From assembly GCF_013122565.1 (NCBI RefSeq), contig NZ_CP053258.1: a stretch of 64,000 nt of DNA. The stretch is one strand, 5' to 3'. Positions within the stretch are counted from its first letter, which is position 1; every line of letters starts with the position of its first letter. Origin of the DNA: Escherichia coli. GTDB lineage: Bacteria; Pseudomonadota; Gammaproteobacteria; Enterobacterales; Enterobacteriaceae. Below the pieces are notes generated by a model. The model made no database searches and was not told where the DNA came from. It was given only the letters and a program-made list of their open reading frames with translations. Positions 45,031 to 58,486 of this stretch are shown here, in pieces. A program made the position numbers and the translations under genes.

Positions 45031-46064
45031 TGGGAAAGAGTAAGAAGAACCGAGCTGCGGCGACGAAACAGATCCAGCTTAAAAGTCAAACTACAGCCGA
45101 AGCATTCAGCTTCGGCGATCCCGTTCCTGTTCTGGACCGCCGAGAATTACTGGACTATGTGGAATGCGTACAGATGGACCGTTGGTATGAGCCGCCCGTC
45201 AGCTTTGACGGACTGGCGCGCACCTTCCGCGCTGCAGTGCATCACAGTTCCCCGATTGCAGTAAAGTGCAACATTCTGACCAGTACCTACATCCCTCACC
45301 CGCTGCTCAGCCAGCAGGCTTTTTCACGTTTTGTGCAGGACTATCTGGTATTTGGTAACGCCTACCTGGAGAAACGCACGAACCGATTCGGTGAAGTTAT
45401 CGCCCTTGAGCCTGTGCTGGCAAAATACACCCGACGCGGGTTAGACCTGGATACCTACTGGTTTGTGCAATACGGCATGACTACACAGCCGTATCAGTTC
45501 ACGAAAGGCAGCATTTTTCACCTGATGGAACCGGATATCAACCAAGAGATCTACGGCCTGCCCGGTTATCTTTCTGCCATTCCGTCAGCCCTGCTCAACG
45601 AGTCCGCCACGCTGTTCCGCCGCAAGTATTACATTAACGGCAGCCACGCAGGCTTCATCATGTACATGACCGACGCCGCGCAGAACCAGGAGGATGTAAA
45701 CAACCTCCGTAACGCGATGAAAAGCGCCAAAGGACCAGGCAACTTCCGTAACCTGTTTATGTACTCGCCGAACGGCAAAAAGGACGGGCTTCAGATCATC
45801 CCATTGTCTGAAGTCGCGGCAAAGGATGAGTTTCTGAATATCAAAAATGTTAGTCGCGATGACATGATGGCGGCACACCGCGTGCCGCCGCAAATGATGG
45901 GGATTATGCCTAATAATGTTGGGGGGTTTGGGGATGTGGAGAAAGCGAGTATGGTATTTGTGAGGAATGAATTAATTCCTCTACAAAGGCGTTTAGAAGA
46001 GCTTAATTTGTGGCTAGAAGAGGAAGCCATAAAATTCAAACCATACAATTTATCAGATAATTAG
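45027..46064 (+). CDS. Q: portal protein Q
   Basis: 345-aa ORF overlapping P stop, P2 Q position. Confidence 0.85.
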   Translation: MMGKSKKNRAAATKQIQLKSQTTAEAFSFGDPVPVLDRRELLDYVECVQMDRWYEPPVSFDGLARTFRAAVHHSSPIAVKCNILTSTYIPHPLLSQQAFSRFVQDYLVFGNAYLEKRTNRFGEVIALEPVLAKYTRRGLDLDTYWFVQYGMTTQPYQFTKGSIFHLMEPDINQEIYGLPGYLSAIPSALLNESATLFRRKYYINGSHAGFIMYMTDAAQNQEDVNNLRNAMKSAKGPGNFRNLFMYSPNGKKDGLQIIPLSEVAAKDEFLNIKNVSRDDMMAAHRVPPQMMGIMPNNVGGFGDVEKASMVFVRNELIPLQRRLEELNLWLEEEAIKFKPYNLSDN

Positions 46065-46071
46065 AATCATG

Positions 46072-46108
46072 GCCCTAGTATATTATCATTTTCACTAGGG
46101 CTTTCTTT
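46072..46108. terminator. hairpin plus T-rich tract between convergent Q and retron RT
   Basis: gccctagt..actagggc stem followed by tttctttct. Confidence 0.5.
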
Positions 46109-47869
46109 CTATATGCTGCATATTTTTTTATAATGTTCAAAAACATCTTTAAAAGTGTTGAGTATTATTTCAAAACCACTAAAATCAACTTTTCGTTTTT
46201 TATCCCTAACTACTTTCACAGAGAAAACATGTTTCCCATATTCAGTTTTTGAGTCCCCATCGTTCTTTTTGTTAAATTTTTTACCACCAAGAATAGTTGA
46301 TAATACATCATGAGTAAAAAGATCTTCCATCGCAGTCTGCTCACCAGTAGCACTTAAAGGCGTTAGAATGATATAGAGATTTTTAAAGACATGGATAAAT
46401 CTCATTTTTCTCATTTTATTGGTATCATCGGGGCAGCTCTTAACATTATTTTTAAGGAAATTCAAAATCTCATTAGAACCAGAATCGTTGTCCAATACCA
46501 TGATAACCGGGTGCTTAGGAATGCTTCCATAGTAGCTTGAATATTCATCCATATATCTTTCGATGAATTTTTTAAGATCTGCGCTACCTCCAGACATATT
46601 AATAAAATAACTTGACTTCTCATCAGATTTAAAAATATTCAAGTTGATATCATTTCCTTTACCGTCTGTGCTTTTCTTGAGCAACTCAGGAAATTTGGCA
46701 GAAAGTGAACGAATAGCTGATTTTAAATATACTCGATCAGTTTTGCCTTCTGTCAAGATTGTCGGGGAAGCATGTCCATGAAAAAACTTGTAGTAAATAA
46801 ATTTACTATATGCCTTCTCTCGTACATTCAGCTTTAACCTGTAGTTTTTTAATGTAATATGAATAGGCGCATATTTTTCAGGCTGTTTACTTATTTTATC
46901 TTGTATGTTATTAAATTTATCAATCTGGTCAATAAACCCAAATCTTCCCTCTAGTTTTTCGATACTCCCCACGACTAGCTTACCATCTTCATCAGGTAGC
47001 TTATATTCTCCCTTACTATAAAGTGAATGAGCTAATGCTCTTGTTTTATTCGAATATTTCCTATCAACGTTAACAAATCTATTTATAGTAAGTCCCGTAA
47101 CTTCTTGTCTCGTGGATTTGTACGAGATCCTTGTTTTAGCATCATTAATATCAAAACCAGCACGTTTTATTTCACTGACAAGAATGCTCCCCAAGACAAC
47201 CCCCTCAGGAAGAGATATTGCCAAATCGGTAGGAAATTCTTTTTTATTAGTTGAAAACGTGATGTCATCGGCATAACGACTATATGAACAACCTAAACTC
47301 TTTGCTAATTTAGCTAATCTAATATCCATAATGCTACAAATTAAGTTTGTTATCACTGGAGAACACGGGCTACCCTGAGGCAAACTTCCCTTATAGCATG
47401 CGGCTTTAGCTAAAGTAGTGGCGACAATCGGATTTAATAAGAAATCCCTATTGGATAGGAAGTACCCTCTCACTCGCCCAAAATTAAAGCTTTTGAAAAA
47501 ATCCTTAAGATCAATATTGAGTATTATATTTTTCCCACGATGTCTGAAAGCATTGGAAATTATTGACTTATTTCTTTCAAAACCAAAGGAGTAATTGTTT
47601 TTAATTTTTTTAATTTTGAAAGTTTCATCTCTACACTCCATTAAAAGATCGGCTATTCGTCTTTGGAGATCTTTCAAACTATCTTCTGGCGCAGAAATCA
47701 ATCTGACTCCCTTACCTTTTTTTGGAATAGAGAAATCTTTATACTGATTATCAGTACCAATTCTGTAAAGAATATTCGTTAAAAACACCAACTTAACATC
47801 TAGCAATTTTGCCAAGTCAGCACGAGATGCTGCGACTTTCAAAAGTAGTAATTTAGAAGTTGCGACCAT
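46109..47869 (-). CDS. ret: retron-type reverse transcriptase with C-terminal Toprim-like domain (Ec67/Retron-Eco2-like)
   Basis: 586-aa ORF; RT motifs [12 protein letters not shown] and YADD; C-terminal ..ILTEGKTD.. and ..VLDNDSG.. resemble Toprim E and DxD motifs; about 33% GC. Confidence 0.8.
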
Positions 47870-47908
47870 AATTATATTTTATCGTAGAAGTTAGTAAGAG
47901 AGGAAGAA

Positions 47909-48037
47909 CGCATGTAGGCACTCCTTCGCACAGCACAACGGCCCTATAGCGACGAAACAAGGATGTCAGGGATGCGATTCCACCTGCCATTAAAATCACT
48001 GGTTGTGATACACAACCAACAAATCTGCCTACATGCG
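47909..48037 (-). ncRNA. msr-msd: putative retron msr-msd non-coding RNA
   Basis: 12-bp perfect inverted repeats cgcatgtaggca (47909..47920) and tgcctacatgcg (48026..48037) flank a 105-nt region 40 nt upstream of RT start; G follows a1; internal hairpin ggttgtg-ata-cacaacc. Confidence 0.5.
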
Positions 48038-48105
48038 CATAAATGAAACTACCATTTCAACGTCTTCATTTCCAGTAATATATTTCAAATATCTACACTG
48101 AGCGC

Positions 48106-48124
48106 GCGCTCGTATCCCCGCCAC
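48106..48124 (-). other. putative cos (cohesive-end) site
   Basis: Minus strand GGCGTGGCGGGGATACGAG; first 13 nt match the P2/186 cos 5' motif GGCG(A/T)GGCGGGGA as I remember it. Confidence 0.4.
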
Positions 48125-48158
48125 GCCTGCCCGCTTTATGTAGTGGTTTTCATGCAGG

Positions 48159-48228
48159 TGCATGATCTACGCAAAAGCCCGCCAGTTCTGGCGGGCCTTA
48201 GCAAAAACGATCCTCAAACGATCATGCA
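48159..48228. other. compound palindromic structure (9-bp outer IR enclosing a 9-bp GC hairpin)
   Basis: tgcatgatc...gcccgccag tt ctggcgggc...gatcatgca seen directly; function unknown. Confidence 0.4.
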
Positions 48229-48469
48229 ATCTCATGCAGCATAGACATGCACAGACGAGTAAAGCGAATCGGACCTTACGCAAGGTGAACTCCTCAGCGG
48301 GCATAATCAGTATGTCGGAAGATCTCTAAAAATAAATAATTCGGTTAACAGGTATGCTTACAAAAGCATATATTTGATTAAAAATCATGTAAGGGGGAGG
48401 ATCTCAAACTGAATCGCCACGGGTTTTACAAATTTCGATAGTCTCTCTAACGTTTCGGCTGAGGTCAAA

Positions 48470-48895
48470 ATGAAAAGCTTTTACGTATTAATTTTAATTC
48501 TGGTTGCAAGCTTTGTTAGCGTCCCAGTTCAGGCGGTAACAGCTAAAAACTATGAGAAAGGAACTAAAGCTCAACAGAAATCAATATCTTACCTTTCATG
48601 TGCATTCTATGGCAGTAGCACACAATTAGATCCTAGCTACACGGAGCAAGTACCTACAGCCGATATCAAGATATTACAGAAAGCAGCTTACCACGCTTAC
48701 AACGATGCGCTCTCATACTTTGGCTATGAGGAACCAGATCACGAACAACGCATAATTGATTATGCTGAATTTGTGGCGTCGCAAGAAGCTGTGTTATGGG
48801 ATAAGCCGGGAATGAATGGAAAGCAGGTAACACTAATTGCTCGTTCTCTCTACAATGAGAGTAACTGTAACTTGTTACTGGACTCAATTAAGTAG
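48470..48895 (+). CDS. hypothetical secreted protein (signal peptide)
   Basis: 141-aa ORF MKSFYVLILILVASFVSVPVQA...; AT-rich; opposite strand to neighbours. Confidence 0.6.
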   Translation: MKSFYVLILILVASFVSVPVQAVTAKNYEKGTKAQQKSISYLSCAFYGSSTQLDPSYTEQVPTADIKILQKAAYHAYNDALSYFGYEEPDHEQRIIDYAEFVASQEAVLWDKPGMNGKQVTLIARSLYNESNCNLLLDSIK

Positions 48896-49054
48896 GAAAA
48901 AGATGGTATTTTGCCCGTAGTTTCAACCTTAATCTCCGAACCTGTCGCAGAACGGGCGTTCACTCATCAAATAAACGCCACACCTAACGCCTCACTGTAC
49001 TCGTTGTTCAACCTTGCTGACGCCAGAACCAAGTTCAGACGCCAGCAACTTTTC

Positions 49055-49288
49055 TTAATGCAGCCAGCTGTCGTCTTCCCACACCTTCTGCATAATCTTC
49101 ATCACTTGTTTTCTTTCTTCGTCCAGTTGCAGTCCGGTCAGTTCCACACCGTTAGAGCTACCTTTGCGGATGCGAATTACCGTTTTGGGATACAGGGGGC
49201 GCAGATTGCGGTAAAGCTCGGATTCAAGGGCGTCCAGGGTAGACTGGCTAATCTTCTGCTCTTTATCGATCATTATTTCAATGCGCAT
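49055..49288 (-). CDS. DinI-like protein (Tum/antirepressor C-terminal-domain-like)
   Basis: 77-aa ORF MRIEIMIDKEQKISQSTLDALESEL...WEDDSWL resembling the DinI family; GAGGTGA RBS upstream. Confidence 0.7.
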   Translation of the reverse strand: MRIEIMIDKEQKISQSTLDALESELYRNLRPLYPKTVIRIRKGSSNGVELTGLQLDEERKQVMKIMQKVWEDDSWLH

Positions 49289-49298
49289 AAAGGTCACC

Positions 49299-49487
49299 TC
49301 AGCTGATGACATCCATTGAGCGGTTGTATTCGTGGGTTCTGATTTTTGCCATGAGTTCATCAGTCAATTCAGAAACCCACTGCAGAGCCAGCCCCTTCTC
49401 TTCATCACTACACTCACTAGCCGCTACAAGCTTAAGAAAAAAATCAATGCGCTGGAGCTTCAAAGACTCCAAAAAATAGTCCTGCAT
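49299..49487 (-). CDS. hypothetical small protein (first gene of LexA-box-associated operon)
   Basis: 62-aa ORF just upstream of the DinI-like gene. Confidence 0.5.
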   Translation of the reverse strand: MQDYFLESLKLQRIDFFLKLVAASECSDEEKGLALQWVSELTDELMAKIRTHEYNRSMDVIS

Positions 49488-49529
49488 CTTTCCTCCTATG
49501 ACACCAAAGCAATACTGTATATATAACCA

Positions 49530-49545
49530 CTGTTTATATTTACAG
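49530..49545. promoter_or_regulatory. LexA box (CTGT-N8-ACAG)
   Basis: ctgtttatatttacag 43 bp upstream of the 62-aa ORF start; adjacent half-site tactgtatatat. Confidence 0.7.
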
Positions 49546-49639
49546 TATATAATAATCTTACTGATGTAAAACGTTTTTTTACGTTCATCAGCCTGAAATG
49601 CCTGGTATTATTAAGAGCACGAATTGTTAACCCGCGTAA

Positions 49640-52054
49640 TTAATACAGGTTCCGCCACTTATCATCTTCCTGCAAACGCTGGTTCCGATAGAAGATACGC
49701 AGGCCTGCTCCTGACGGAATACTGCCGCCGCGAAGGAGTAAATCGACCTCTTTCTCGCTGCCATCAAATCCTCTGGACTTCAGTTCATAGACGAGCTGCT
49801 GTCGCTGATGGTCTGTAATTCGCTGTTTGTAGTCTTTACGCCGTTTCGGTTTCACCAGGCGTAACCTTGCAGCCAGTTCCCGGCGCTCTTTTTTGCTCAT
49901 ACTGTGCAGGTATTCGTGCAACTCCTTGTCATCCATGCGGGTAATGTCCGTTCTGGTATCCCCATCAGCTGATTTGTCTTTCCCTTGTTGGTTCAAATTT
50001 TCAGCAAGGGGACAGTTATTGCCACGAGTCCAAGGGGCGCAAGCGCCCTGGTCGGCTACCGCCTCCTGAACGTCAACGGCTTTACGAACCATTTTCCACT
50101 TCACTGCATGAGTGCAGATCTTGCCCTCTGCAATGGGTGACCAGATGCCATAAATACGAATGCCGTGATCGCCATAGGCGGTCGGCTCTTCGTTAATTTC
50201 ATAAGCAGTTCTGATGAGGTGATATTTGCGGGGAACCAGTACGCCGCCCTGCTTCATGATGTAAGTGGCAAAACAACCAGCATCAGCAGCAGCCAGGATT
50301 GCATCAAGGCGCGGGTTATCCAGTACCGGCGCACCTGCTTTTTTGTCCCCCTGTTGCCTTGCCGCCTGACCAGCCAACAATCGCAGTTCACGGTAAGCCT
50401 GACGCCCCGGAATGCCAAAGAAGCGGAATTGCTGAACACGATGCAAAGACGCCCAGGCATTCACGTATTCAGCGTTATCACGCAGAGATTTACCCGTTTC
50501 CTTGCTGATCTCGCCAGCCAGACCACGCCCGTCAATGTTCTTACTGATGTATTTCGCGATGTAGCTTGTTGGCGTACCTTTGCGCGGGTTTATCAGCTCA
50601 GACTTAAAGCGTGGTCCCGTGTTATTACCCAGCTCCTCGCGGTCTTCACGAATGGCAAACTTACGCAACAAAGCAGTAATGGCTCGGCGATCTTTTTTGC
50701 GCATAAAACACAACAGGTGCCAGTGCACTGTACCGTCATGATGCGGCTCAGCCACCCGCACGCCATACCAGCGCAATCCGGCTTTGTGCATCGCTTTACG
50801 AAATGCAGCAAACATGCCGACCAGATAATCACTGCTTTGTCTTACCGTCGCGTTTGTCCAGGTCGGGTTTGGTCTGCCGTTATTTAGCGTGGAATGGAAA
50901 CGTGACGGACAGGTGATGGTGTAGAAAACGGCGCAGTCACCGCGCATTTCCGCGATAAGCTCCAGACCTTTAACACAGGCCATCATCTCATTGCGGCGAT
51001 GCGCAGGGTTGCTGCTGCTGGCGTTTACCACGTCTTCCATATCCAGCGTGTCGCCGTCTTCGTTCACCAGTTCATGAGAACGAAAAAACTCCAGCGACTT
51101 ACGGCGCTGCTCACGTTTATGCATCACGGCTTCATAGCTGACATAGGGAGATGCTTTTTTGCTGACCAGGCAGACAGCGCGCAACTGCTCTTCCCGCCAT
51201 TCGCAACGCATCTTCCATAATTTCCGATACCACCAGTCGGCGCACAACATACGCGCCAGCGAACCCGGAATGAGTTCATAGGGCACGGGTTTACGGCGGT
51301 TTCTTTTCCGGCGGAGTTGCTCAAACGCAGGTGGGATGACATCCAGTCGCAGGGTTTCTGCTGCCACCCTTTCCCATGTCTTGCGGATTTCTTCTGGCTT
51401 AACGTCATCGGTGGCATACAAATCGCCACAAGCTGCATCAAGGCACATGCTCATATGCGCAGCTACCAGGGTGGACAGGCGTTTCACCTGATCCTGACTC
51501 ATTTCAGGCAGGATCAGCAGGCCGTCCAGCCCTTCCTGGCTCGCCATAAAGCGAAAAGCAGTGGATAGCTGACTGTCGCGTACATGCTCCAGCCGTTCCA
51601 GACATGGCTTAATCGTCTCACGCAAATAGCGGGAATAAGCCTTTGGCCTGCCCAGGCTGCTGAAGTATTCAATACGTTGCATCAGCGGCTTGCTGATATG
51701 GGAAGGCTGGGCGTTAACGTCCGCCAGAATGACCATGTCTGGATTAAAACGCTGCTGCTCATGCGCCAGCTTTGCCCGGCTAATGAGCTTATCCTGCTCT
51801 ATTTCGCGTTGGACAGGATCACGGGATTCATTAAAGAAATAACGCTCCCAGACCTGATCACTCAGAGCCTCGCGGCGCAGTTGTTCCTGCTCGTTATCGG
51901 CAGCGTACAGAGTGATCAGGTTTGAAAGCGCAGAAACCGGCGCAACTTCCGCCGGGTCCAGATAAGGGTTAATGGCCTTTTTCGGGCTGTTCCATGAGAA
52001 TGCTGCGGCGACCTCGTTAAAGCCGCTGCAGTTGTTCATATCATCATGGCTCAT
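49640..52054 (-). CDS. A: replication initiation protein A (rolling-circle nickase)
   Basis: 804-aa ORF at P2/186 gene A position. Confidence 0.85.
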
Positions 52055-55054: not shown

Positions 55055-55651
55055 ATGTCAACATCAAAGTACCCAAGTGAGATCAAAATAAATCCCAATA
55101 AAGGTGGTAAGGCTGCGATTGAGCGATTAGTCGAAGCCTATGGCTTTACGACACGACAGGCTTTAGCTGATCACTTGGAAGTATCAAAAAGCACACTAGC
55201 GAACAGGTATTTGCGGGATACATTTCCTGCTGACTGGATAATCCAATGTGCTCTTGAAACAGGAACCTCCCTCAAATGGTTAACTACCGGACAAGGCCTT
55301 AAGCAAAGCTCGCTGACAGCAGCTACAGAAGAGCTTGTTAAGTTTCGCCTTGCCGCAGGCAAAATGATTGAAGACGGTTCATATGTCTTCGATTCATCAT
55401 TTCTTCCTGCAAACCTTTCATCACCAATTGTTATTCAGGATGGACTCGTCACATACATTTGTGATCAAAAATTTTCTGAAGTACTTGATGGAAACTGGTT
55501 AATCAATATCGACGGAACCTATTCCATTCGAAAAATCACAAGGCTTCCTAAAGGAATGATTAAAATTACAACAGCAGAGAATAGCTTTGAATGTGCATTT
55601 TCTGATATTGAAGTGGTTGCTTGTATAAGAAGTACAATAGTCTCGAATTAA
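55055..55651 (+). CDS. cI: CI-type immunity repressor (186-like)
   Basis: 198-aa ORF, HTH N-terminal region; divergent from lytic operon. Confidence 0.75.
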   Translation: MSTSKYPSEIKINPNKGGKAAIERLVEAYGFTTRQALADHLEVSKSTLANRYLRDTFPADWIIQCALETGTSLKWLTTGQGLKQSSLTAATEELVKFRLAAGKMIEDGSYVFDSSFLPANLSSPIVIQDGLVTYICDQKFSEVLDGNWLINIDGTYSIRKITRLPKGMIKITTAENSFECAFSDIEVVACIRSTIVSN

Positions 55652-55671: not shown

Positions 55672-57348
55672 ATGAATTCATTTGCCATCGTTATACTCTT
55701 ATTAGCATTTCTCGCCCCTGTTCTAGCTGTAATATTATTTAAACAAAGTAAAAAACACAAAGCGGCTATAGATAACCTGACAGCTAACAACATAGCCCTT
55801 TCTAACCAACTGATTGAAAATCAAGAAAAACTAGCACAGACCGTACGAGAATTATCAGATCTTGAAGGGCGAGCAGCACCATTGTGGCAATACGAAGAAT
55901 TGCACAGCGCAGTAATGGATGCAGAGAATAAGATAAAAAATGCGGACTCAATAGCCAAGCAAAAAATAGATGAAGCCCAAATTAAGGCGGCTAAAACAGT
56001 AAACGAAGCAAATTATCAAGCTCAGATAACAATAAGCAACGCTAATAGCGAAGCTATAGCAATCACCAAAGACGCTCGCGATGCACGCCTGAAAGCCAAA
56101 GAACGTCTTGATAATGCTAATAATAAAGCAAATGAGCTAATCTCAAATGCTAATGACAATGCAGTAAAAATTATTTCTGATGCAGAAGAAAGAGCAAAGG
56201 AGATTGCTGGTTCAGCATATGAAGCTAAAGAGTTTGCAGAAAAATATGAAGCAGTTGCAAAATCAATGAAAAATAAAATTGAAGGTTATGGTGATGAATG
56301 GATCATCCCTAACCGTAGTGTACTTGATGAGCTGGCAGAAAATTATGAATTTACAGATGCAGGCAAGGAATTACAAAAAGCCAGAGAGTTAACCAAATCA
56401 TTAATAAAAACTAATAAAGCTGCTTCGTGTGATTATGTTGAGCAAAACAGGCGTAATACTGCCATAAACTTTGTTTTGGATGCCTTCAATGGAAGAGTTG
56501 ACAGTATTTTATCAAAAGTCAAACACAACAATTTTGGAAAACTTTCCCAAGAAATAAAAGATGCATTTCAACTAGTAAATTACAATGGCTCTGCCTTTAG
56601 GTCCGCAAAAATAAGTGACATCTATCTTCAGGCAAGACTCAACGAGCTAAAATGGGGTGTAGCAGTTAATGAAATTATGCTCGAAGAAAAAGAAGAGCAA
56701 AGAAGGATTAAAGAACAGCTTCGTGAAGAGGAAAGAGCTCGTAGAGAATATGAAAAAGCGATAAAAGAAGCTGAAAAAGAAGAAAAAGCTATTCAGCAAG
56801 CTATAAATAAAGCAACGAAAGAACTTATGCTTGCAAATGAAGAACAACGCTTAGCTTTAGAGCAAAAAATAGCTGAACTACAGTTAAAATATGAAGAAGC
56901 TGAAGCTAAAAATCAACGAGCTATTTCTATGGCTCAACAAACCAGATCAGGCCACGTCTATATCATTAGTAATATTGGTTCATTTGGCGAAGATGTATAT
57001 AAAATTGGAATGACACGCCGCCTTGAACCACTTGATCGTGTTCGTGAACTCGGAGATGCTAGTGTTCCTTTTTCGTTCGATGTTCATGCGATGATTTATA
57101 GTGATGATGCACCATCATTAGAAAACCATCTGCATAAAGTTTTCAACGAAAAGCAGGTCAATAAAATTAACTCACGAAAAGAGTTTTTTAACGTAAATTT
57201 AAAAGAAATCAAATCAGTTATTGAAGACATGAACATCAACGCCCACTGGACAATGTTTGCAGAGGCGAAAGAATATAGAGAGTCTCTAGCTATTGAGCAG
57301 GAGCGCAAAGCAGCCACTTCCGCCAACGATGAACTACATGTTGCTTAG
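55672..57348 (+). CDS. membrane-anchored coiled-coil protein with C-terminal T5orf172/GIY-YIG-like domain
   Basis: 558-aa ORF; N-terminal TM; long coiled-coil repeats; C-terminal GHVYIISN...YKIGMTRR...RVRELG; about 37% GC; between cI and int. Confidence 0.65.
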   Translation: MNSFAIVILLLAFLAPVLAVILFKQSKKHKAAIDNLTANNIALSNQLIENQEKLAQTVRELSDLEGRAAPLWQYEELHSAVMDAENKIKNADSIAKQKIDEAQIKAAKTVNEANYQAQITISNANSEAIAITKDARDARLKAKERLDNANNKANELISNANDNAVKIISDAEERAKEIAGSAYEAKEFAEKYEAVAKSMKNKIEGYGDEWIIPNRSVLDELAENYEFTDAGKELQKARELTKSLIKTNKAASCDYVEQNRRNTAINFVLDAFNGRVDSILSKVKHNNFGKLSQEIKDAFQLVNYNGSAFRSAKISDIYLQARLNELKWGVAVNEIMLEEKEEQRRIKEQLREEERARREYEKAIKEAEKEEKAIQQAINKATKELMLANEEQRLALEQKIAELQLKYEEAEAKNQRAISMAQQTRSGHVYIISNIGSFGEDVYKIGMTRRLEPLDRVRELGDASVPFSFDVHAMIYSDDAPSLENHLHKVFNEKQVNKINSRKEFFNVNLKEIKSVIEDMNINAHWTMFAEAKEYRESLAIEQERKAATSANDELHVA

Positions 57349-57430
57349 CAATGTATGTTTCATAGTAATCACACATTGATTACTGGTTACATATACAGTT
57401 AAATTTAGCCCTCTGATATGAGGGCTTTTT

Positions 57431-58486
57431 ATGGCAGTACGAAAACTAACCACAGGGAAATGGCTTTGCGAATGTTACCCCGCCGGACGTAGCGGACGCC
57501 GTGTGCGTAAACAATTCGCCACCAAAGGCGAAGCACTGGCCTTCGAGCGATACACCATGGGGGAAATAGAAGCAAAGCCCTGGCTGGGCGAATCAGTGGA
57601 TCGTCGGACACTGAAAGATATGGTTGAGCTATGGTTCAAATTACATGGCAAATCTCTTACTGCCGGACAGCATGTCTACAACAAGCTGCTGTTGATGGTT
57701 GACGCCTTGGGAAATCCCCTTGCAACTGATCTCACCTCAAAAATGTTTGCTCACTATCGCGATAAACGCCTTACTGGTGAAATCTACTTCAGTGAAAAAT
57801 GGAAGAAAGGAGCAAGCCCAGTTACTGTTAACCTGGAGCAAAGCCATCTAAGCAGCGTTTTCAGAGAACTTTCCCGCCTGGGTGAATGGACACTTCCAAA
57901 CCCATTAGAGAAGATGCGCAAATTCACTATCGCAGAAAAGGAAATGGCATGGCTTACACATGAGCAGATTATCGAATTACTGTCTGACTGCAAACGTCAG
58001 AACCCAATTCTGGCACTGGTGGTAAAAATATGTCTAAGTACAGGCGCACGTTGGCGAGAAGCAATCAATCTTACCCGCTCACAGGTCACCAAGTACCGAA
58101 TCACCTTTGTGAGAACGAAGGGGAAGAAAAACAGAAGCATCCCTATCAGTAAAGAGCTTTATGAAGAGATCATGGCGCTCGATGGGTTCAATTTCTTCAC
58201 AGACTGCTATTTTCAATTTTTATCCGTGATGGAAAAAACGTCTATCGTTCTCCCTCGCGGTCAACTGACACACGTTCTGCGCCATACGTTTGCGGCGCAC
58301 TTCATGATGTCGGGTGGAAACATCTTGGCCTTACAAAAAATTCTCGGACACCACGATATAAAAATGACTATGCGTTATGCGCATCTGGCACCGGATCATT
58401 TGGAAACGGCGCTCCGTTTCAATCCACTGGCAACGTTACCAAATGGCGACAAAGTGGCGGCAGCGGTTGGCATTACCCCGCAATAA
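57431..58486 (+). CDS. int: tyrosine integrase (P2/186 family)
   Basis: 351-aa ORF with R..HxxR..Y catalytic pattern (TGARWREA...LRHTFAAHF...MRYAH). Confidence 0.85.
   Translation: MAVRKLTTGKWLCECYPAGRSGRRVRKQFATKGEALAFERYTMGEIEAKPWLGESVDRRTLKDMVELWFKLHGKSLTAGQHVYNKLLLMVDALGNPLATDLTSKMFAHYRDKRLTGEIYFSEKWKKGASPVTVNLEQSHLSSVFRELSRLGEWTLPNPLEKMRKFTIAEKEMAWLTHEQIIELLSDCKRQNPILALVVKICLSTGARWREAINLTRSQVTKYRITFVRTKGKKNRSIPISKELYEEIMALDGFNFFTDCYFQFLSVMEKTSIVLPRGQLTHVLRHTFAAHFMMSGGNILALQKILGHHDIKMTMRYAHLAPDHLETALRFNPLATLPNGDKVAAAVGITPQ

Follow-up and report, generated by a model that had tools for sequence, protein, structure and literature searches.

A tum operon in two cistrons, the probable LexA-controlled induction switch of a Fels-2/186-like prophage of Escherichia coli

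In phage 186, the Tum protein inactivates the CI repressor by binding to it (Shearwin et al. 1998, as related in passages of PMC7708051 and PMC3121763), and the 186 sequence record places the gene behind p95, an SOS-dependent promoter with an annotated LexA site whose first six bases are the -10 hexamer TACTGT. The same record describes truncated, DinI-only forms of Tum as modulators of SOS induction and not as a CI inhibitor. According to the passages on tum in Lemire et al. 2011 (PMC3121763), where Bunny et al. 2002 (PMC151935) is cited, a stop codon divides tum of Fels-2 and PSP3 into two genes, the first of which in PSP3 codes for the antirepressor. A related operon logic is outlined in the same article for Gifsy-1/2 and Fels-1 (GfoA/GftA/FsoA), where a LexA-repressed small antirepressor is encoded together with a dinI homologue and the repressor is non-cleavable. 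Finally, the Phollow study (Nat Microbiol 2025, PMC12055606; preprint PMC11195241) reports an in-frame 'tum' deletion in DuoHS, a prophage of E. coli HS. In the sections of PMC12055606 that deal with this mutant, the tum deletion and the lexA(Ind-) allele G85D each abolish mitomycin C-induced lysis and virion foci, and cells with the tum deletion retain an active SOS reporter.

Here we describe a tum locus in a 64,000-nt stretch of E. coli DNA, hereafter the window. A prophage extends over about 23.5-58.5 kb of it; its structural and early regions share ~96% identity with isolated phages, so that it looks complete. This prophage is Fels-2/186-like (Peduoviridae), and the locus is very probably its SOS-induction operon, in a two-gene tumA-tumB form, with LexA as the off-switch, TumA acting against CI and TumB as an accessory. 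On the minus strand, the end of gpA is followed by a 152-nt intergenic region, a 62-aa ORF, a 10-nt gap and a 77-aa ORF; the location of the operon directly downstream of gene A, on the same strand, is shared with 186, PSP3, Fels-2 and HS. The features of the region are the following:

52054..49640, minus strand: replication gene A, P2 gpA-type, 804 aa, upstream neighbour of the operon.
49565..49570, minus strand: predicted -35 hexamer TTTACA of the tum promoter, read from the sequence, 17 nt upstream of TACTGT.
49542..49547, minus strand: predicted -10 hexamer TACTGT, the first 6 nt of the LexA 20-mer, by analogy with the annotated -10 of 186 p95.
49528..49547 (minus-strand reading 49547..49528): LexA box 1, TACTGTAAATATAAACAGTG, with the core CTGT-N8-ACAG at 49530-49545.
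49513..49532 (reading 49532..49513): degenerate LexA-like 20-mer CAGTGGTTATATATACAGTA, overlapping box 1 by 5 nt, of uncertain function.
49299..49487, minus strand: tumA, 62-aa ORF, antirepressor gene by analogy, with the Shine-Dalgarno sequence (SD) AGGAGG at 49492-49497.
49055..49288, minus strand: tumB, 77-aa DinI-family gene, with the SD GAGG at 49297-49300, overlapping the tumA stop codon.
49014..49048, minus strand: stem-loop 6 nt past the tumB stop codon, without a U-run (-22.4 kcal/mol, z-score -1.4), a possible weak 3′ end.

An earlier note on this DNA had placed a canonical CTGT-N8-ACAG box 43 bp before the 62-aa ORF, and a 13-nt spacer with a ribosome-binding site between the two ORFs. 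Box and ORF are both there, at 49530-49545 and 49487..49299, with 42 nt between the box core and the tumA ATG. The ribosome-binding site is also real, lying over the stop codon of tumA, and the spacer measures 13 nt only if that stop codon is counted and 10 nt otherwise. A terminator scan gave no terminator-like site after tumB, and an intrinsic terminator at this place was rejected, given that the stem-loop has no U-run and a z-score of only -1.4.

A model of how the operon would work can be drawn from these elements. In the lysogen, host LexA would occupy the box, covering the -10 hexamer and the start site, and keep the operon off. Upon DNA damage, RecA-stimulated self-cleavage of LexA would allow the operon to be transcribed. 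TumA, predicted to be a two-helix protein of 62 aa, would then bind the 186-type CI encoded in the window and release the lytic promoter, so that the prophage would enter lytic growth, with CI itself remaining uncleaved. TumB, for its part, would act on RecA filaments and tune the strength or duration of the SOS signal, as an accessory and not as the trigger. Of this model, sequence comparison establishes the presence and conservation of the LexA box, how the promoter is laid out, which proteins are homologous and to what type CI belongs.

How good is the case for the LexA box? The core CTGT-N8-ACAG has a single match in the 64-kb window, at 49530-49545, but the bare core is not significant by itself, as it is expected 0.63 times per 64 kb and appeared at least once in 47 of 100 shuffles. 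This expectation is what speaks for the reading that the box is a chance AT-rich palindrome, situated in a promoter region and unbound by LexA. The complete 20-mer of box 1 agrees with the LexA consensus TACTGTATATATATACAGTA at 17 of 20 positions, and matches with three mismatches or fewer were found in 0 of 100 shuffles. Motif scoring, which had been proposed along with the original claim as a way to check it, gives a similar picture: with an approximate position weight matrix (PWM) made from 25 E. coli LexA boxes, box 1 scores 23.8 bits, higher than 21 of the 25 known sites in a leave-one-out comparison, and the next best 20-mer in the window has 10 bits when the LexA-like sites at 49513-49532 and 57381-57400 are left aside. 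Comparative conservation is a stronger argument than these shuffle and PWM statistics. A perfect CTGT-N8-ACAG is located 20-45 nt before the homologous gene in all eight diverged phages that were compared (this prophage, Fels-2, PSP3, 186, Cronobacter ESSI-2, Erwinia ENT90, Yersinia vB_YenM_324 and ESSI2_ev129); TA always precedes it, and the resulting TACTGT is identical in the eight phages despite the divergence of the flanking DNA. Box 1 as a whole is identical in Fels-2 and E. coli HS. With the 186 counterpart annotated as the LexA site of an SOS-dependent promoter, a score in the upper range of known sites and a position kept among diverged flanks, an accidental palindrome has an almost negligible probability, and we consider box 1 a predicted LexA operator that overlaps the operon promoter.

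The promoter itself follows the layout of 186 p95, TTCACA-18-TACTGT in the phage and TTTACA-17-TACTGT in the window. A simple promoter scan did not flag it, because its -10 hexamer is atypical. Beside box 1, the degenerate 20-mer CAGTGGTTATATATACAGTA scores 18.7 bits, around the median of the known sites, with one perfect half-site and GTGG in place of CTGT in the other. This site is retained in Fels-2, HS and L002 (an E. coli genome), and in a MAFFT alignment it is the CAGTGGTTATATATACAGTA site, and not box 1, that aligns with the box of 186 and PSP3.

The second gene was correctly recognised in the earlier note as a member of the DinI family. TumB matches Pfam DinI (PF06183) with an E value of 8e-23 over model positions 1-63 of 63, the full length of the profile; it is 41% identical to residues 71-145 of 186 Tum, the C-terminal half (E 3e-24), and aligns over residues 1-77 with the structure of E. 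coli DinI, 1GHH (E 3e-6). The RefSeq label of the gene is 'DinI-like family protein', and a DinI-like module is indeed what the next cistron after tumA encodes. By analogy with the DinI-only forms of 186 Tum, TumB is probably a modulator.

The identity of the 62-aa ORF is less apparent. Pairwise BLASTP against 186 Tum gave no alignment, a Pfam scan of the ORF gave no match and a PDB sequence search with the TumA family profile gave no solved relative; with pairwise BLASTP and Pfam negative, the homology to 186 Tum is seen only when family profiles are used. An hhalign comparison of the TumA family with the family of the 186 Tum N-terminal half yields 96.9% probability and an E value of 1.5e-10; the 46 aligned columns are in register, starting at residue 1, and both families share the pattern E-x4-(Q/E)R(I/V)-x5-(R/K)L-x6-C-x3-(D/E)(K/R)-x2-AL-x4-E(L/I). 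The alignment to 186 tum that had been named as a check thus works directly for tumB and, for tumA, fails by BLASTP and succeeds by profile. A protein of Yersinia vB_YenM_324 bridges the two types, being 51% identical to that of 186 and 32-36% identical to the Fels-2 type. On these comparisons, the product of the 62-aa ORF and the N-terminal half of 186 Tum are remote homologues. In an AF2 model (pLDDT 85.8), TumA consists of two helices that form a hairpin, and the conserved Cys lies in the loop.

As regards closer relatives, TumA is 98.4% identical to Fels-2 STM2728 (STM2728.Fels2) and agrees at 61 of 62 positions with ECHS_RS04495, which is the gene that the 'tum' deletion of DuoHS concerns. 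The members of the family, known from Escherichia, Salmonella, Klebsiella, Enterobacter, Pectobacterium, Lonsdalea and others, are free-standing and 55-75 aa long, and none of the 66 representatives at 50% identity is a Tum-like fusion in which the small domain is followed by a DinI domain. The family built on the N-terminal 70 residues of 186 Tum also has many free-standing members, of 63-78 aa, which are called 'Tum protein' by some sources. The profile link shows that the Fels-2-type and 186-type antirepressors constitute one family, whose members have been fused to DinI, or separated from it, more than once.

Which of the two genes encodes the antirepressor? The title of the earlier note had presented the DinI-like gene as the Tum-like part, and the reading in which the DinI-like protein is the antirepressor and the small ORF an accessory or leader peptide finds some basis in the fact that the DinI-like part belongs to the Tum polypeptide in 186, and in RefSeq-style annotation, which calls all forms of 186 Tum 'RecA filament binding protein DinI'. 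The DuoHS mutant bears directly on this question. As listed in the preprint (PMC11195241), the deletion primers join a stretch ending in AGGAGGAAAGATG to TGAGGTGACTTTTATGCGCATTG, the junction primer being ATAGGAGGAAAGATG followed by TGAGGTGACTTTTATGCGCATTG; mapped to the HS sequence, this junction shows that the deleted segment coincides with the 62-aa gene, the DinI-like gene and its SD being untouched. A deletion of the small gene alone, as that study reports it, abolishes induction. Moreover, it is the upstream PSP3 gene that is reported as the antirepressor in the relevant passage of PMC3121763, the 186 record assigns the DinI-only forms to SOS modulation, and four phages (ESSI-2, ENT90, vB_YenM_324 and ev129) retain a small tumA gene behind a LexA box without any DinI gene after it. 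A DinI-like antirepressor is consequently very unlikely, and by analogy with these systems it is the small ORF that encodes the antirepressor.

On a locus that is 98% identical, others have shown that the small gene and a cleavable LexA are needed. Two limits on these experiments have to be kept in mind. The parts of the DuoHS account that describe the mutant mention no complementation, so that the deletion may in principle also have acted through tumB expression; and since lexA(Ind-) blocks the whole SOS response, its phenotype is not a proof of direct LexA binding at the box.

The arrangement as a whole resembles that of 186 tum, as had been suspected from the sequence: the operon follows gene A, the LexA 20-mer starts with the -10 hexamer TACTGT and both products are homologous to the corresponding halves of Tum. 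The sizes also agree, with 62 + 77 = 139 aa for TumA and TumB against 146 aa for 186 Tum. This agreement in length, and the existence of fused forms in 186, BIS20 and Yersinia phages, would be expected as well if the pair was a tum pseudogene broken by a frameshift or a nonsense mutation, in a prophage no longer inducible by the SOS response. However, both ORFs are intact and have an SD each; the two-gene layout is found in 987 E. coli genomes (at least 80% coverage), Fels-2, PSP3 and many Klebsiella phages; the small-protein family is free-standing, with 0 of 66 representatives fused in the manner of Tum; and DuoHS, which has the same layout, is inducible in the account cited above. A broken gene is extremely unlikely in this light. 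The proposal of the earlier note that tum might be split or frameshifted holds for the first half, with the precedent of Lemire et al. 2011 and of the PSP3 record, and not for the second, as over 1000 E. coli genomes have conserved the two cistrons undamaged. We interpret the locus as tum in two cistrons, as its sequence indicates.

The prophage also encodes a repressor:

55055..55651, plus strand: cI, 186-type immunity repressor with Pfam Phage_CI_repr and Phage_CI_C, the presumed target of TumA.

The CI of the window is 32% identical to 186 CI and matches PDB 2FJR with an E value of 5e-27. A Pfam scan gave no Peptidase_S24 match in it and assigned its C-terminal domain to Phage_CI_C; it is thus a 186-type CI without an autocleavage domain, and not a lambda-type repressor with a C-terminal domain resembling the LexA/S24 peptidases. 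This fits induction via an antirepressor and not via repressor autocleavage, and agrees with the view of the earlier note that repressor autocleavage is not the route of induction. The CI of the window shares 55% identity with that of DuoHS and 42-46% with the CIs of Fels-2 and of Klebsiella phages that carry the same TumA, and because of this divergence the pairing of TumA and CI in this prophage is an inference. Among prophages whose TumA is at least 98% identical, the N-terminal domain (NTD) of CI is 58-81% identical and its C-terminal domain 28-52%, which hints that TumA may target the N-terminal, DNA-binding domain. We do not claim that the type of TumA tracks the type of CI NTD, since the correlation is not strict over five distant phages. 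An AF2 prediction of a TumA-(G4S)6-CI fusion, run with a small paired alignment, gave a pTM of 0.45 and no confident interface, with TumA modelled at lower confidence than TumA alone.

The divergence of CI has a bearing on another explanation, namely that the operon mainly serves the host as an SOS moron, the lysogen profiting from a DinI-like modulation of RecA, and that the prophage is induced by some other route. The resemblance of TumB to host DinI would agree with it, as would the substantial differences between the CI of the window and the CIs tested with this TumA, and the case of the Salmonella prophage BTP5, for which the part of PMC7067206 concerned reports strong tum expression yet no infectious phage. 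Against it, TumA is kept at 98-100% identity across prophages, its loss blocks induction of DuoHS as described in that study, and with a 186-type CI that has no Peptidase_S24 match, no alternative SOS input to CI is visible. We regard a moron as unlikely and maintain that the operon would serve the induction of the prophage through TumA.

How does this operon appear in genome annotations? Nearly always, the locus reads 'replication endonuclease | hypothetical protein | DinI-like family protein', and in PHROGs the small protein belongs to phrog_698, of unknown function. In RefSeq, tumA is still a 'hypothetical protein', in spite of the genetics of a nearly identical copy and the earlier studies of PSP3 and Fels-2, which identify the gene. 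The gene is not rare: of 5426 complete E. coli genomes, 1125 have the 761-bp tum region, which is covered to at least 80% in 987, so that about one fifth of complete E. coli genomes carry tumA. Correct naming of tumA would help to recognise prophages that, often together with defence systems (here a retron and a PD-Lambda-1-like gene), may be mobilised by DNA-damaging antibiotics via LexA. This annotation gap, the profile link between the two types of Tum and a conserved LexA box before int are what the present analysis adds to the described switch.

The last of these elements lies at the other side of cI:

57376..57430, plus strand: putative second LexA node, made of TTGATT, the box TACTGGTTACATATACAGTT at 57381-57400, TTAAAT, a hairpin at 57407-57426 and a T-run, followed by the int ATG at 57431.

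The TACTGGTTACATATACAGTT box scores 23.7 bits with the same matrix, as strong as the tum box. It is situated after the stop codon of a PD-Lambda-1-like gene and before the start codon of int, and fills the 17-nt spacer between TTGATT and TTAAAT. The hairpin, AGCCCTC-tgatat-GAGGGCT followed by TTTTT, is terminator-like by scan; its 3′ arm holds the SD of int and the T-run is directly followed by the int ATG. Each of the nine examined elements with this type of int (the window, phage vB_EcoM-813R9, Klebsiella phages KP12 and 4LV2017, E. coli HS, E. coli B C3029 and three other E. coli genomes) has a box of 21.3-25.6 bits in this position, with invariant CTG(G/T) and ACAG cores, a variable spacer and an invariant ACATTGA upstream. 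The genes found upstream of the box vary, with at least six kinds of cargo: the PD-Lambda-1-like gene, two different hypothetical proteins, a 63-aa ORF, a KAP NTPase, and an AAA ATPase with DUF4276. Regions homologous to the upstream of int are present in 1120 of the 5426 E. coli genomes. No LexA box precedes int in Fels-2 and 186, in which int is the immediate neighbour of cI.

We tentatively propose that the prophage is wired to LexA at two points, int having a LexA-repressed promoter of its own just before the hairpin, so that excision would respond to SOS independently of CI; this proposal falls just short of being probable. Transcripts arriving from cI and from the variable defence cargo would stop at the hairpin, and the SD of int would be sequestered in it, the cargo and the terminator cutting int off from the cI transcript. 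Transcripts from the SOS promoter would start within the 5′ arm of the hairpin and escape both termination and masking of the SD, which would make int translatable. If this is true, the gap between cI and int could be used as a free cargo slot, and a functional box would represent a second SOS input, on excision, in a well-studied class of phages. The literature searched contained no description of LexA control of int in P2-like phages, which does not prove that the arrangement is new, and a search on phage vB_EcoM-813R9 and on TumA/TumB returned nothing useful. The int LexA box is the one item of this analysis that is possibly new.

Compared with the systems described at the outset, the two-cistron tum of the window is shared with Fels-2 (STM2728/STM2726.1) and PSP3, where it also stands behind a LexA box and after gene A. 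The PSP3 record describes tumA as 'similar to 5' end 186 tum; UV induction of prophage' and tumB as 'similar to dinI and 3' end of 186 tum'. PSP3 differs in that its TumA is of the 186 type and ~20% identical to the TumA of the window, whereas Fels-2 differs in that int abuts cI and lacks a LexA box upstream. E. coli DinI (1GHH) is a relative of TumB along its whole length and through Pfam DinI, but TumB is phage-borne and would be co-transcribed with an antirepressor, its effect on RecA being a prediction. The resemblance to Gifsy-1/2 and Fels-1 is one of operon logic, judged from the description; there dinI comes first, and the repressors are of the lambdoid Gifsy kind (gfoR/gtgR group, with DicA and RacR as relatives) and not of the 186 CI type.

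With 186 p95-tum, the window has in common the LexA box that starts at the -10 hexamer TACTGT, the position after gene A, the order of an antirepressor domain and a DinI-like domain, and a CI of the type that in 186 is inactivated by binding and not by cleavage. In 186, however, both domains reside in one protein of 146 aa, with DinI-only forms arising from internal starts; its N-terminal domain is only remotely similar (no BLASTP match), orf97 lies downstream, and the extra degenerate box is a feature of the window. DuoHS has the same two genes and the same promoter, with identical -35 hexamer and box 1, at the same chromosomal site by rcdA/ybjJ; the DNA of the locus is 98% identical and TumA differs at one residue. 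The differences concern CI, which is only 55% identical, and the cargo genes, since the window has a retron RT-Toprim gene after tumB and the PD-Lambda-1-like gene between cI and int. An Rfam scan of 45500-50000 gave no retron msr/msd RNA or other family at E <= 0.1. The operon of the window is, in view of these comparisons, the already known SOS switch of a P2/186-like E. coli prophage, described before in its relatives and tested genetically in a nearly identical copy.

The prophage carries the following ORFs, given in window coordinates:

46109-47869, minus strand: retron RT-Toprim, type I-C, 586 aa (PADLOC PDLC02966, E 6e-213)
48470-48895, plus strand: ORF of 141 aa whose N-terminal segment resembles a signal peptide, convergent with the DinI-family gene tumB
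55672-57348, plus strand: PD-Lambda-1 defence protein match, 558 aa, in the gap between cI and int (PADLOC PDLC03976, E 3e-120)

The retron ORF, which is of the Ec67 kind, occupies a cargo slot flanked by tumB and the portal gene, and no msr/msd RNA was recognised for it with Rfam in window 45500-50000. The 141-aa ORF had no match in PADLOC and its homologue is a hypothetical protein in RefSeq. Because the cI-int slot of other prophages holds unrelated genes (a KAP NTPase; an AAA ATPase together with DUF4276; small ORFs), this gap behaves as a cargo hotspot.

Between this cargo and int, in window 57376-57431, lies a strong LexA-like box, TACTGGTTACATATACAGTT (57381-57400), scoring 23.7 bits with an approximate weight matrix built from 25 E. 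coli boxes. The box is enclosed by a promoter-like TTGATT-17-TTAAAT, followed by a terminator-like hairpin that contains the int SD and adjoins the int ATG. In all nine examined elements with this integrase type the box is kept at the same position, preceded across them by at least six different cargo genes; Fels-2 and 186 are without a LexA-like box before int. The corresponding regions at comparison loci are:

L009: 18306-18360
L016: 8995-9052
L017-L022: also present

A degenerate LexA-like 20-mer was also observed in the tum promoter (window 49513-49532), overlapping by 5 nt the LexA box at 49528-49547; one half-site is perfect and the whole scores 18.7 bits on the same approximate matrix. 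In the MAFFT alignment the 186 and PSP3 LexA boxes line up with this degenerate site and not with the 49528-49547 box, and the site is retained in Fels-2, E. coli HS and another E. coli genome.

The LexA-boxed tumA-like gene of ESSI-2, ENT90, vB_YenM_324 and ESSI2_ev129 is not followed by a DinI-like gene, and in ESSI-2 and vB_YenM_324 it is wholly unannotated. In many TumA-family proteins, not including that of the window, the last two residues are (L/F)Q and a glycine-rich tail precedes them, for example GGLSGGGSRFQ, GGDKSGGVLQ and VSGGDISGCGTLQ (family alignment A2; L007 1189-1400; L013 85-297).

TumA alleles of the window and L009-L012 are 98-100% identical, yet the CI repressors found with them (at 55055-55651 in the window) share only 42-55% identity overall, with 58-81% in the N-terminal domain and down to 28-52% in the C-terminal domain. 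Judged from these sequences, a single antirepressor may thus act on CIs of several types; if so, crosstalk between co-resident prophages would be possible. The CI C-terminal domains are as distant from one another as from that of 186. Some CI genes also have an extra in-frame copy of the CI-type HTH domain upstream: PSP3 cI (286 aa) carries this duplication, and Klebsiella phage Kp4860-7 (L011 1-891) has it as in PSP3.
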